Below are positions 39,423-43,772 of a stretch of DNA of 64,000 nucleotides, in pieces. The DNA comes from a virus (taxonomy: Duplodnaviria > Caudoviricetes), in IMG/VR virus record IMGVR_UViG_2558860250_000001, positions 32,001 through 96,000 of that record. One strand, 5' to 3'. The notes under the pieces are model-generated. The model was not told where the DNA came from, did not search any database, and saw nothing but the letters and a program-made list of their open reading frames with translations. How positions within the stretch are numbered: the stretch's first letter is position 1; each line of letters begins with the position of its first letter. A program made the position numbers and the translations under genes.

Positions 39423-40273
39423 ACGAGTTAGCGTTGGTGGAAAGTCGCGATGTACGCGAGCGGTACATGGAACGAGTTGATGTGTTGGACAAGGTTAAGG
39501 CGTTGACGATGTTACCGGATGATATGCATGTGGCGGCGAAAATGGTCGCGGATTACTACGAAGTGGACTACAACAACGTCATTAAGCCAGTAATCCACCG
39601 TCACCGTGAAGAACTTGATTCAGACGGCATGGTGGTACTACGTGGCGAGGAGTTAAAGAGATATAAAACAGAGTGGCAAAATGCCACCCTAACTGCAAGG
39701 TCGAATCTTACGCTTCTCCCTCGTCGAGCAGTCCTGAGAATCGGTATGTTGCTGCGTGATTCGGAAGTAGCCAAACAGGTTCGTACATATTTACTCAACG
39801 TTGAAGAGTTGGCGGCACCGGAACATAAGCAAGAAGCAGTGGATATGATGGAAGTGCCGAAGACGTTCCTTGAAGCACTAAAATTGGCGGTGTATTTAGA
39901 AGAAAAGCGCCAGGAACTATTGCTTGAGAATGGCGAGTTGAAAAATACAATATCTGAGATGCAGCCGAAAGTTGATGTATATGAGGATTTGGTTAGCGCA
40001 GAAAATTACATGACCATCGCTACAGTTGCTAAGTCGATGGGATGGGGACGAAATAAATTGTTCGCACTTTTACGAGACAAGAATATTCTGCGACGAGATA
40101 ACACTCCATATCAACGGTATATAGACAATGGATATTTTAGCATACGCATGGTGCCTAAACGCGTAGGTGATAAAATAGAAAACTTTCCACAGACAATTGT
40201 GAGTGCGAGAGGGCATGAGTTTATATACAACATCGTGTGTAAGCATAACGTATTTTATTTGAATAAGGAATAA
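39419..40273 (+). CDS. Phage antirepressor (C-terminal ANT/KilAC domain)
   Basis: RAVLRIGMLLRDSEVAKQVR; PKTFLEAL; QPKVD..D; GRNKLFALLR; PYQRYIDNGYF. Confidence 0.88.
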   Translation: MNELALVESRDVRERYMERVDVLDKVKALTMLPDDMHVAAKMVADYYEVDYNNVIKPVIHRHREELDSDGMVVLRGEELKRYKTEWQNATLTARSNLTLLPRRAVLRIGMLLRDSEVAKQVRTYLLNVEELAAPEHKQEAVDMMEVPKTFLEALKLAVYLEEKRQELLLENGELKNTISEMQPKVDVYEDLVSAENYMTIATVAKSMGWGRNKLFALLRDKNILRRDNTPYQRYIDNGYFSIRMVPKRVGDKIENFPQTIVSARGHEFIYNIVCKHNVFYLNKE

Positions 40274-40291
40274 AATTTACATTATAATATC

Positions 40292-40321
40292 TTGACATTC
40301 ATATAGTATATATAATATAAT
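40292..40321 (+). promoter_or_regulatory. sigmaA promoter upstream of the guide-RNA locus
   Basis: TTGACA-N18-TATAAT. Confidence 0.75.
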
Positions 40322-40352
40322 TAATATAGAAGGAGGGTGGAGAACAATAAAT

Positions 40353-40509
40353 AGGGTGACTGGACACCCTTGAGCCGAGATTACAGTGGTGCGAATACAT
40401 AGGTCAACGATAATATCAACGCACAATACACTCGGCAAGGTGAAATATCACCATCGTTTCGCGCGAAATGTGCGGAACCGACACATACAAATACATATGA
40501 TACGGCAAC
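40353..40509 (+). ncRNA. tracrRNA scaffold A (Cas12f1-type)
   Basis: Stems AGGGTG/CACCCT, GCCGAG/CTCGGC, GGTGA/TCACC, TTCGCGC/GTGCGGA; anti-repeat 40477-40509 complementary to repeat A. Confidence 0.82.
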
Positions 40510-40510
40510 A

Positions 40511-40658
40511 GTTGCAACGTATAAATGTAGCATGTATGTGTTGCAGGTACGCACAATAATCAACGCTCCAACAGTCGGGATCGTTGTTGCAACGTATAAA
40601 TGTAGTATGTATATGTTGCAGGTGAACGTATATATGCGACACACGTAATAAACACAAA
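40511..40658 (+). CRISPR. Mini-array A: 2 repeats GTTGCAACGTATAAATGTAGYATGTATRTGTTGCAG(GT), each followed by a 36-38-nt spacer-sized segment
   Basis: Repeats start at 40511 and 40586 (2 mismatches, period 75). Confidence 0.85.
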
Positions 40659-40814
40659 CGGTCAGCCGGGATGAGCCGAAGCCGAGAAGTGACGCTAGTA
40701 CATAATGGTTGGTAAGTTAAATAAAGCGTCAACACTACAGGCAAGGTGCTATAGGCACCACCGTTCGCGCAAAATAGGCGTGAACCACTGTCATACATGT
40801 CACCGTAATTGTAC
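40659..40814 (+). ncRNA. tracrRNA scaffold B (Cas12f1-type)
   Basis: AAGCCGAGAAGTG, TGACGCT/AGCGTCA, GGTGC/GCACC, TTCGCGC/GCGTGAA; anti-repeat 40784-40814 complementary to repeat B. Confidence 0.82.
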
Positions 40815-40815
40815 A

Positions 40816-40986
40816 GTTGCAATGTATATGATGACTGTATGATTAGTGCGGAAACTCGTTCGATTCTTGTCGTCACTGCCACACACCTAGTTGCAATGTA
40901 TATGATGACTGTATGATTAGTGCGGAAAAATAGACCTAGGAATTTTTTTCGTTTCCTTTGTTGTTGCAATGTATATGATGACTGTA
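40816..40986 (+). CRISPR. Mini-array B: 2 full repeats GTTGCAATGTATATGATGACTGTATGATTAGTGCGG(AAA) + 1 truncated repeat, 2 spacers
   Basis: Repeats start at 40816, 40890 and 40963 (the last is only 24 nt); periods 74 and 73. Confidence 0.9.
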
Positions 40987-41050
40987 GCGCGAACCATAAG
41001 TGATTGCAAAATGCCCACACTTTCGCGCCGAATAGGGAGAGTATAAATAA

Positions 41051-42394
41051 ATGATTGTTAAAACGATGCCATATGAAATTATAAAGCCGTTGTCGTGTGA
41101 TTGGGCTGTATTCGGGGAAATGCTTCGTAGACTAAGAGATGAGTCATTTAGAATAAAAAATTCTGCGATACAATATTTTTACGAAGATGATATTAAAAGA
41201 CGGGAATTTAAAAAGAATAATGGTAGATTCCCTAAAAAAGGTGAATTCTATGGTTCTTCAGTATCCGTATATAATTATGTGCGCCCTGATGTAAAATATT
41301 CGGCGATGGGAAACGTTACCTTGATAAACCAATTAGTCAAAAGTGTATGGATTAAATATAAAGATGATGTTGTAAAAAGAAATATGTCTATACCTAGTTA
41401 CAGACCAAATAATCCGATTGAAATTAATGTTCAGTCCTTCAATTCGTTCGATTTTGGGCAAGCATGTGTTAACTTGTTGTCAAGAAAGGGAGTTGAAGAA
41501 CTCAAAAAGAAATTGTCGGAGGTAAAAAAGAAAAAGAATAAAACAGGTGGTGACGATAATCTAAAATTTACGCAAGAACAATTGAATGGCATATCAACAT
41601 CTGTCACATTTGCATTCAACCCTGGGAAAAACAATGCAAAACAAGTTTTAAATCGCATTATATCGGGCGAGTATAAATTATCATCGAGTAAAATCATATA
41701 CAATGAGCGTAAAAATAAATGGATGTTGGCGGTCGCTTATAAATTTGAACCTAAAACAATCGAGTTAGACAAAAATCGCGTACTAGGCATTGATATGGGA
41801 GTTGTATATCCAGCTTATATGGCAGTGAACTACGATAAATACTGGAGAGATAGCATTGACGGGGGACAGATAGAACAATATCGTAAAACTGTGGAGGCGC
41901 GCAGAAGAAGGCTGCAACGTCAAGCTGCTGTATGTGGCAATGGGCGTATTGGACATGGACGCAAGAAGCGAATGCAACCATTGGAGAAAATAAGCGATAA
42001 GGTGGCAAATTTCCGCAACACCGTAAATCATACATATGCGAAAAAGATTGTACAGAATGCCGTTAAATTGGGATGCGGTACGATACAAATGGAGGAACTG
42101 TCTGGTATAAATGAAAAAGAGACATTTCTAAAGAGGTGGACATATTTCGATCTGCAAAAGAAAATTGAGTATCGTGCAAAGGAATATGGCATAGATGTTA
42201 TAAAAATAAATCCCAAATATACATCACAACGTTGCAGTGAGTGTGGATACATAGATGAGCGAAATAGACCAAAGGTACCCGACCAATCGAAATTCAAGTG
42301 TTTGTCGTGCGGATACGAAACGAACGCCGACTTCAATGCGGCGCGTAACATAGCGACACCATATATTGATAAGATTATATCATTGAACAGTTGA
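41051..42394 (+). CDS. cas12f1: Cas12f1-like (type V-F / TnpB-derived) RNA-guided nuclease, 447 aa
   Basis: RuvC triad intact (GIDMG, IQMEEL, NADFNAARNI); Zn finger CSECG/CLSCG. YEIIKPL..DW..FG, MSIPSY, RIISGEY and GHGRKKR are collinear with AsCas12f1 as recalled; adjacent arrays and tracrRNAs. Confidence 0.9.
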   Translation: MIVKTMPYEIIKPLSCDWAVFGEMLRRLRDESFRIKNSAIQYFYEDDIKRREFKKNNGRFPKKGEFYGSSVSVYNYVRPDVKYSAMGNVTLINQLVKSVWIKYKDDVVKRNMSIPSYRPNNPIEINVQSFNSFDFGQACVNLLSRKGVEELKKKLSEVKKKKNKTGGDDNLKFTQEQLNGISTSVTFAFNPGKNNAKQVLNRIISGEYKLSSSKIIYNERKNKWMLAVAYKFEPKTIELDKNRVLGIDMGVVYPAYMAVNYDKYWRDSIDGGQIEQYRKTVEARRRRLQRQAAVCGNGRIGHGRKKRMQPLEKISDKVANFRNTVNHTYAKKIVQNAVKLGCGTIQMEELSGINEKETFLKRWTYFDLQKKIEYRAKEYGIDVIKINPKYTSQRCSECGYIDERNRPKVPDQSKFKCLSCGYETNADFNAARNIATPYIDKIISLNS

Positions 42395-42578
42395 TTTTAT
42401 ATAATATAATTGATATAATTAAATTATAGGGAAGTGATACATATGGAACGCGATGCGCTACTTCGCATATTAGGCGATTTGCTGTTTGCGCTAGATGATG
42501 CTGACACGAGGTATGTTGGCTACATCAACTCACTAATTGTCGAAACGAAGAAAGCAATTTATTTGATGGACACGGAGA

Positions 42579-43772
42579 GTGGTGCGATTGAGTCTGGAAC
42601 GCAAACCGGATGAATCGGTGTTTGAGTACAAACTGCGCATATGTCGCGAGTTAGACGGAGTGAAAACGTGGCAGGAGATAGCCGATATTGTCAACGATGA
42701 ATTGGGTACGGAGTTTGGAGAGTCAGCCATACGCAAATGGTACGTGCCGATTAGACAGTACATGGATTATCAACGTGACCATGGCAGCACAGACAATGAG
42801 TTGTTGCAACAGATTAAGGATGAACAGTTGCGACTGGAAAAGTTAAAAGTACAGGTGGCGGATGAACGTCGTGCATATAAGGCAATAGTTCGTGAGTCGG
42901 CCAGGTTTGATAATATCATCGACAAGTTGAAATCGTCATTTGATGAGTTGGCGACACTTAAGCCGTTGGAGTGGTCGAAGCCACAAACGTACATATCGAA
43001 TACAGATGGCGTGGTGCTATGGTCGGATTGGCACTACGGAGCATTCGCGGACAACTATTTCAACCAGTTTAACAATGATGTATTCAAGCGACGGTTGGAT
43101 AAGTTGATATCTAAGACGATACAGTATGGCACGTTTAATGGGATCGAGACGCTACATGTGATGAACCTCGGTGACAGTATAAGCGGCCACATTCACGTAT
43201 CAACACGTATTCAGTCAACGGAAAACGTGATTAGTCAGACACAGCATGTGAGCGAGTACATAAGTGAAGCGTTAGTTGAGTTATGTAGACACTTTGGCAA
43301 TGTAAAATATTATCATGTTCGTGGAAATCATGACAGAGTTAACCATTTATCTAAGGATACCAACATTAGCGCAGAGTCATTTTCGGATTTGATTCCGTGG
43401 TATGTGTCGGCACGTACAGGACATGTACGCAACTTGGAAATCATGGAGAACCCATACGATGATGAGATTGCAGTTGCTGATGTACAGGGTCATATTTGTT
43501 TAGGAATCCACGGGCACAAAGATAAGTTGAACAATGTGGCGGCTGATTTAACGTTGATGTTAGGTGTGAAACCAGCGTCGATATTCTTAGGACATTACCA
43601 TCACAGCGCTGAACGTGAATCAACTGGCGGAATTGATGTAATACAAAATCCATCGTACATAGGAACCGACGAATACTCGCGCAACATACGCAAGACAAGT
43701 AAACCGGCACAAAAGATGCTGATATACTCACGCGATGAAGGCAGGATTTGCACATATAACATCGGGCTGTAA
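42579..43772 (+). CDS. Calcineurin-like metallophosphoesterase/nuclease with N-terminal HTH and coiled coil
   Basis: SDWHYG, LGD, GNHDR, HGH, GHYHH. Confidence 0.85.
   Translation: MVRLSLERKPDESVFEYKLRICRELDGVKTWQEIADIVNDELGTEFGESAIRKWYVPIRQYMDYQRDHGSTDNELLQQIKDEQLRLEKLKVQVADERRAYKAIVRESARFDNIIDKLKSSFDELATLKPLEWSKPQTYISNTDGVVLWSDWHYGAFADNYFNQFNNDVFKRRLDKLISKTIQYGTFNGIETLHVMNLGDSISGHIHVSTRIQSTENVISQTQHVSEYISEALVELCRHFGNVKYYHVRGNHDRVNHLSKDTNISAESFSDLIPWYVSARTGHVRNLEIMENPYDDEIAVADVQGHICLGIHGHKDKLNNVAADLTLMLGVKPASIFLGHYHHSAERESTGGIDVIQNPSYIGTDEYSRNIRKTSKPAQKMLIYSRDEGRICTYNIGL

Follow-up and report, generated by a model that had tools for sequence, protein, structure and literature searches.

The main long RNA of a guide unit encoded upstream of the cas12f1 gene of a phage-like element is an uncut molecule of ~235-240 nt that runs from the transcription start, through a scaffold and the loop of a hairpin made with the first CRISPR repeat, to a guide of ~21 nt. 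The unit lies in the window, by which we mean the whole 64,000-nucleotide stretch of DNA that was analysed. The reading that we favour, to which we give a probability of roughly 70% as an explanation of the whole, is that the two tandem units found there are the guide-RNA module of a prophage-borne type V-F1 (V-U3-like) Cas12f1 and act as natural single guides folded in cis.

The smallest CRISPR genome editors are Cas12f1 nucleases, and we know of none that has been used other than with a guide joined artificially. If a natural joined guide stays uncut in its native host, an active Cas12f can do without the split into tracrRNA and crRNA. Guide designers would then gain native solutions of loop and length, and active phage systems would be connected with the path by which dead relatives of Cas12f regained single guides and arrays of guide units. 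The interest lies mainly in the native RNA evidence for a joined guide and in the match of spacer B1 to the organism's own second replicon, which is new here; the architecture itself is common in the family. Because the B1 match to this resident replicon is perfect, the lysogen would be a native setting for asking what purpose a prophage-borne Cas12f serves.

A Cas12f1 gene and its two guide units

The 447-aa open reading frame matches the Pfam families Cas12f1-like_TNB (PF07282, 6e-24) and OrfB_IS605 (PF01385), and the closest solved structures to its product are those of AsCas12f (8J3R, 8J12 and 7WJU; E ~1e-103 to 1e-105). Residues D248, E348 and D427 and both CxxC pairs are invariant among 22 homologues, and the gene occurs once in a genome of 4.35 Mb that is 99.5% complete. 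The protein sequence predicts a typical, nuclease-competent Cas12f1 of the AsCas12f clade, type V-F1 (formerly V-U3), and the features by which that type is recognized were found together, namely a small effector (~400-500 aa in this type) with a C-terminal RuvC and a zinc-finger/TNB domain, an adjacent CRISPR array and a long tracrRNA with an anti-repeat.

What kind of element carries this gene? Its neighbours are phage-like and include a tyrosine integrase, ANT, Dam, an SbcD-like exonuclease, PhoH, a methylase, RNR, a DNA polymerase and members of many PHROG families, and no Cas1, Cas2 or Cas4 was found among the neighbouring ORFs scanned (ANT, Dam, SbcD-like exonuclease, PhoH, methylase and RNR). 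The HK97 capsid family PF05065 and the terminase families PF03237 and PF03354 have no match anywhere in the genome. The label of prophage is therefore based on the integrase, the DNA polymerase, the exonuclease, ANT and the many PHROG hits, with the tested capsid and terminase families absent, and the packaging genes of the element are of other families or lie outside those tested. Judged by gene content, this phage-like chromosomal element would carry a prophage-borne type V-F1 CRISPR-Cas12f1 system. A segment at 42396-42432, which precedes the SbcD-like exonuclease gene (phrog_284, 42579-43772), is 76% identical to the promoter region at 40298-40334, and the cas12f1 and exonuclease genes may share a promoter type.

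The features of the locus are collected in Table 1. A repeat finder resolved two mini-arrays, A with two repeats and B with two repeats and a degenerate third, lying 50-540 nt upstream of cas12f1. The repeats of array A are 38 nt long; the first two of array B are identical when taken as 40816-40854 and 40890-40928, and the third has a degenerate 3' half. The repeat periods are 75 = 38 + 37 in A and 74 = 37 + 37 in B, which suggests that spacer B1 is 37 nt long. Units A and B are homologous along their full length, with 74% identity.

Table 1 Features of the cas12f1 locus in the window
Feature	Position	Strand	Remarks
Sigma-70 promoter	40292-40321	+	12/12 consensus, TTGACA-18-TATAAT; drives both guide units and cas12f; RNA-seq rise from 40322
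Scaffold A (tracrRNA-like)	40335-40510	+	anti-repeat A ~40479-40509, junction A at 40510; homologous to scaffold B and both L163 scaffolds; top RNA-seq depth of the locus, ~90
Repeat A1	40511-40548	+	paired in cis with anti-repeat A
Spacer A1, 37 nt	40549-40585	+	RNA 3' ends pile up at 40569, giving a 21-nt guide; no target found
Repeat A2	40586-40623	+	95% identical to A1; self-complementary
Inter-unit stretch	40624-40659	+	could serve as second guide of unit A; RNA-seq depth ~23; no target found
Scaffold B (tracrRNA-like)	40660-40815	+	anti-repeat B ~40785-40814, junction A at 40815; depth climbs from 34 to 81
Repeat B1	40816-40852	+	cis pairing with anti-repeat B; 3' boundary ambiguous by 2 nt (40852 or 40854)
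Spacer B1, 37 nt	40853-40889	+	identical to C2:20796-20832 in own genome; 5' flank there TTTC
Repeat B2	40890-40926	+	repeat finder
Spacer B2	40927-40962	+	no target found
Degenerate terminal repeat B3	40963-41001	+	3' half differs; sequence and the motif after it conserved in L163
cas12f1 gene, 447 aa	41051-42394	+	RuvC D248/E348/D427 and two CxxC pairs intact; depth ~20-24 by read-through

The initial annotation of this DNA, made from its letters, had described an anti-repeat followed by a single A and then the repeat in both units, with each pair closing into a continuous hairpin around a tiny loop, and both descriptions hold. Anti-repeat A ends at 40509 and anti-repeat B at 40814, each is followed by its lone A, and both first repeats open with GTTGCAA. 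Folded alone, hairpin A (40476-40548) reaches -23.7 kcal/mol with 25 bp and a 3-nt loop (z -3.2; none of 200 shuffles was as good) and hairpin B (40781-40854) reaches -23.2 kcal/mol with 27 bp and a 4-nt loop (z -2.9; 6 of 200 shuffles were as good), and both junction hairpins are recovered in folds of the entire 251-nt units. With the hairpin geometry imposed, random 45-nt windows of the locus equalled the pairing of the abutting flank with the repeat in 0 of 300 cases for unit A and about 1 of 300 for unit B. Each anti-repeat also prefers its own repeat, such that the cognate duplexes (-29.4 and -24.7 kcal/mol) are better by 5-10 kcal/mol than the non-cognate ones (-20.1 and -18.6 kcal/mol), and the anti-repeat and repeat sequences of the two units have diverged together.

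The locus of the closest homologue (L163, on a metagenome contig, 61% protein identity) has the same layout of a promoter, two tandem units of scaffold and mini-array, and the gene (L163:150-2276). All four units of the two loci share an A+GTYGCAA junction, and their four scaffolds are homologous. Unit 2 of L163 has one spacer and, after it, a degenerate repeat that shares conserved sequence with the third B repeat of the window; with one spacer only, the cis-linked guide is the sole guide of that unit. RNAalifold, run on the alignment of the four units, recovered the conserved 5' stems and did not recover the helix between repeat and anti-repeat, because this hypervariable part was not aligned in register.

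Could the inverted repeats be a chance product of A/T/G-rich low-complexity sequence? The repeats are indeed rich in GTAT-type motifs, non-cognate duplexes reach -18 to -20 kcal/mol, and a sliding-duplex search has a high background. The shuffle and geometry controls oppose such an origin, however, as do the identical junction in four units of two loci and the family-wide excess of junction pairing described below, and a chance origin of the hairpins is already effectively refuted.

Searches with the locus itself returned nothing further: there were no Rfam matches within 40250-41100, and the DNA of the locus had no match in the phage collection. Read by eye only, a short pseudoknot candidate joins the loop of scaffold stem 1 to the 3' end of the repeat and covaries across units, at ~40359-40364 with 40543-40545 in unit A, at ~40666-40672 with 40849-40851 in unit B, and in the L163 units as well. 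The candidate pairs are CUG:CAG (unit A and L163 unit 2), CCG:CGG (unit B) and CUCAG:CUGAG (L163 unit 1), at the position of the pseudoknot in known Cas12f guides. Spacer A1 begins with 18 nt that repeat two parts of scaffold A: 40549-40558 is identical to 40419-40428, and 40559-40566 to 40415-40422. This may reflect partial self-matching or the way in which the spacer originated.

Joined RNA in the native host

A central question is whether the joined architecture survives in RNA. RNA-seq data of the same organism were taken from three studies, and four runs were mapped to 40260-41160. The depths given here are those of X14, a stranded raw-read run from one ordinary size-selected library with 353 reads at the locus, in which processed crRNAs of 40-60 nt are invisible and cuts amounting to less than one fifth of depth are not listed. 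Almost all of its reads have the orientation of + strand RNA, and the mRNA of the target gene on C2, which has the same orientation, confirms the strand assignment.

Depth in X14 is ~2 up to 40321 and then rises from 10 to 92 over 40322-40476. Over junction A it is 80 and then 64, with no dip, and it stands at 55 in early spacer A1 before falling to 23 from 40570. A similar profile is seen in the second unit, where depth rises from 34 to 81 over 40694-40817, is 80 and then 72 over junction B, again with no dip, and settles at 14-24 over the remaining array and the start of cas12f. At 40569, which is 21 nt into spacer A1, 10 molecules end exactly, and this is the sole pile-up of ends listed. 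The length of the unit A RNA is that expected if Cas12f protects the scaffold, the repeat and ~20 nt of spacer. Unit B shows similar accumulation, with its 3' end hidden by reads from the identical C2 gene. Junction A is also spanned by RNA contigs of the two further studies (X7, 40345-40686; X1, 40260-40814). The X1 contig lacks 40815-40888, one repeat-spacer unit of array B; we do not count this as a real deletion, as it is most likely an assembly collapse in which words of spacer B1 were absorbed by the high-depth C2 contig.

These data bear directly on the proposal that anti-repeat, first repeat and first spacer lie on one transcript able to fold in cis, which is borne out by the uncut RNA ending ~21 nt into spacer A1. 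It had been proposed that regular cutting in the loop, or a promoter or terminator between tracr and array, would speak against it; no cut in the loop reaches one fifth of depth in X14, and neither promoter-like nor terminator-like sites are predicted on the + strand between either scaffold and its array. By analogy with engineered Cas12f sgRNAs, the uncut RNA likely functions as a guide.

Is the joined RNA then the guide, or the precursor of one? In an ordinary dual-RNA system, the joined RNA would be a precursor whose duplex is cut by RNase III or another nuclease, and the abutment of tracr and array would reflect compact gene order. There is precedent for this, in that AsCas12f1 and SpCas12f1 RNPs from E. 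coli contain a separate tracrRNA and a crRNA of 40-50 nt (PMC8548392), and in type V-K a joint tracrRNA-array precursor is processed later (PMC9938897). Small RNAs are invisible to the RNA-seq used, and the fall in depth from scaffold to repeat (92 to 64) permits up to ~30% cut molecules. A separate tracrRNA and crRNA may therefore also exist, and could be the active form, since small RNAs and minor cuts do not register in X14. Against such processing, most of the long RNAs that cover the anti-repeat extend over repeat and spacer too, their common, defined 3' end lies at the 21-nt guide length, as protection by the protein would give, and no ends pile up inside the duplex. Moreover, unit 2 of L163, with its single spacer, would have no guide other than the one linked in cis. 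For these reasons, we consider the precursor explanation rather unlikely, while giving it appreciable weight.

A different explanation is that the hairpins are no parts of guides and regulate cas12f from its 5' leader, for example as attenuators or stability elements. The cas12f mRNA does carry the hairpins in its 5' leader, and past each unit depth is about four times lower. This function is nevertheless very improbable, given that neither hairpin is followed by a U-tract, no + strand terminator is predicted, one arm of each hairpin is a CRISPR repeat that recurs with spacers, and the scaffolds are homologous to ones beside other cas12f1 genes.

Spacer targets and a proposed mechanism

Spacer B1 is identical over 37 of 37 nt to C2:20796-20832 (L162:6797-6833), where C2 is the second contig of the organism's own genome, 124.7 kb in length. 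The protospacer falls within a DUF6744 gene that is highly expressed. The cluster also encodes a DnaN-like clamp, a MoxR ATPase and a VWA protein, neighbours that have phage-family relatives. If the spacer is 37 nt long, the 5' flank TTTC fits the published PAMs TTC (Sp) and YTTN (As) (PMC8548392). From sequence, the prophage Cas12f seemingly carries a competent guide against a co-resident replicon. How do guide and target persist together? In the lysogen, 0 of 137 reads (run X14) depart from the target sequence, and run X13, from a strain that lacks the prophage, shows a single C>T substitution there. Guide B1 and C2 may coexist because activity is low at the temperature of growth, because an inhibitor is present, because the target is repaired from other copies, or because the role is regulatory.

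No other spacer gave a comparable result. Besides the array itself, B1 is the only spacer with a match in the organism's own genome. No convincing target was found for spacers A1 and B2 or for the two tail sequences, all hits in the phage and plasmid collections being at E >= 0.5, and exact seeds of spacers A1, B1 and B2 found nothing in viral contigs. The target region of C2 likewise has no match in the plasmid and phage collections.

One promoter gives rise to a transcript of ~2.1 kb that contains two tandem guide units and then cas12f1, so that the guides sit in the 5' leader of the nuclease's mRNA. Each unit consists of a tracrRNA-like scaffold of ~175 nt whose 3' anti-repeat leads through a loop of 3-4 nt into the first repeat of its own mini-array, and the stem that a GAAA linker makes in engineered Cas12f sgRNAs therefore forms here in cis. 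We infer that a Cas12f1 dimer would take up the cis-folded RNA directly, using it as a natural single guide, that host nucleases would trim the unprotected 3' part, and that the complex would cut DNA bearing a T-rich 5' PAM.

Later spacers of a unit would need a tracr from another transcript, as had been anticipated for the downstream repeats, and anti-repeat A does pair with repeat A2 at -23.2 kcal/mol. Repeat A is self-complementary, and its second copy folds on itself in a way that would compete with tracr pairing in trans. Without Cas1-Cas2, new specificities would probably arise by duplication of whole units. Two tandem, diverged units of scaffold and mini-array are also seen in a distant phage Cas12f1 clade (L099:1800-2370; local alignment score 84 against 40 +/- 6 for shuffles), and whole-unit duplication has therefore happened more than once.

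We tentatively hypothesize that in the lysogen Cas12f1 is loaded mainly with unprocessed cis-folded RNAs excised from its own mRNA leader, that only first spacers are used efficiently and targets are gained by unit duplication, and that guide B1 is aimed at a persisting 125-kb replicon, suggesting control and not destruction. This possibility is held with much less confidence than the assignment of the module; if true, a nuclease-active Cas12f would here have an array of single guides without adaptation.

Other Cas12f1 loci and known systems

Is the abutment of scaffold and array peculiar to this locus? About 60 full-length homologues were collected from genome and viral contigs, and nearly all have an array beside the gene, at a distance of 150-300 nt and in the same orientation. 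In bacterial chromosomes the arrays are mostly long and downstream, and in viral contigs they mostly have 2-7 repeats and lie upstream; the tree on which this was viewed is a quick, unrooted version, so no evolutionary direction is drawn from it. An nhmmer search with a profile of the four scaffolds found related scaffolds in ~30 loci, always on the strand of the gene and filling the gap between gene and array.

A sliding RNAduplex search for anti-repeats within 700 nt around each array was discarded, as chance windows reach -20 to -30 kcal/mol, and junction-specific tests were used in place of this noisy search. Pairing up to the junction was scored when the best duplex of the 45-nt 5' flank with the first repeat had at least 12 bp and lay no more than 7 nt from the junction, with the flank at the other end of the array as control. 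Among the other Cas12f1 arrays, 27 of 49 meet this definition compared with 11 of 49 control flanks (Fisher p 0.0017), and the duplex energies also differ from those of the control (Wilcoxon p 3e-6). In many of these loci the first ~10 nt of the repeat are unpaired, which gives a larger loop, and the tight loop of 3-4 nt occurs in a subset (the window, L092, L090 and L111). A tracr abutting its array is thus the norm of the family in phage and chromosomal loci alike; its presence here is no surprise, and the idea that the layout is special to this locus is not supported.

The nearest characterized systems are AsCas12f1 and SpCas12f1 (PMC7229846, PMC8548392; PDB 8J12, 7WJU), whose tracrRNAs of 169 and 153 nt are encoded between gene and array and whose crRNAs consist of a partial repeat and a shortened spacer (PMC8548392). 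The effector of the window is ~42% identical to them, with RuvC and zinc finger intact, and the systems have in common a long structured scaffold, an anti-repeat that pairs with the repeat, a repeat that starts with GTTGCA, a guide shortened to ~20 nt, and a tracr that lies immediately 5' of the array and is oriented like it. Adaptation genes were not seen among the neighbouring ORFs scanned in the window, which agrees with the V-U3 type as far as that scan goes. The window differs in that its module lies upstream of the gene, in the 5' leader and under a single promoter, and in its two tandem diverged units and near-continuous hairpin with a loop of 3-4 nt. Furthermore, the RNA bound in the AsCas12f1 and SpCas12f1 RNPs is described as two molecules (PMC8548392), whereas the main long species of the window in the native host is the uncut joined RNA. 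In the literature searched, no nuclease-active Cas12f1 is reported to have a native single guide that stays uncut, which falls short of proving that there is none.

The order of scaffold, anti-repeat, small loop, repeat and guide is also that of engineered Cas12f sgRNAs (tracrRNA-GAAA-crRNA), which are active when joined by a tetraloop (10.1101/2023.07.03.547593; PMC12255294). Here, in contrast, the loop is genomic (CAG or CAGU), the full repeat of 37-38 nt is kept, and more repeats and spacers follow downstream. The type V-K CAST of Anabaena shares with the window a tracrRNA and array under one promoter on one primary transcript, a joint tracrRNA-CRISPR array precursor (PMC9938897), but its effector belongs to the Cas12k family. 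The "Cas12 hacker" preprint was rejected as a parallel since it concerns a different, larger family.

How does the locus relate to single-RNA ancestors and descendants? The functional split of the omegaRNA is seen as the decisive step on the way from TnpB to Cas12 (Jin et al. 2025, cited in PMC13565253). The TnpB omegaRNA and the TranC intermediates of that citation are similar to the window in having scaffold and guide on a single RNA with a TnpB-like nuclease. The initial annotation had taken the locus for something like an intermediate between omegaRNA and split tracr/crRNA, a view that the data do not support. The protein falls inside the Cas12f1 clade, and whereas the omegaRNA of TnpB overlaps the 3' end of tnpB with a guide read from DNA past the transposon end, the module here is 5' of the gene and has CRISPR repeats. 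Nor does the locus resemble an IS200/IS605 TnpB in other respects: such an element has ends and usually several copies, and here the gene is single-copy with no transposon ends seen.

The resemblance, if anything, is to the later path by which dead Cas12f guides were re-fused. For the nuclease-dead Cas12f lineage (Sigma-TnpB/dCas12f), Altae-Tran et al. describe how the array shrinks, the tracrRNA and half a repeat fuse to a new omegaRNA, and the unit duplicates into arrays (PMC10691335), and Hoffmann et al. found single chimeric guides in it (PMC12259090). Fusion and unit duplication are seen in the window as well. The dead lineage is marked by an inactive RuvC and a single chimeric guide with no separate tracrRNA. 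In the window a continuous RNA of scaffold, repeat and guide is likewise seen, and separate RNAs may exist beside it, but RuvC is intact, full repeats persist in arrays of 2-3, and a sigma factor is not associated with the locus. We therefore class the window as a standard Cas12f1 system that, in its compact phage form, produces the first guide in cis.
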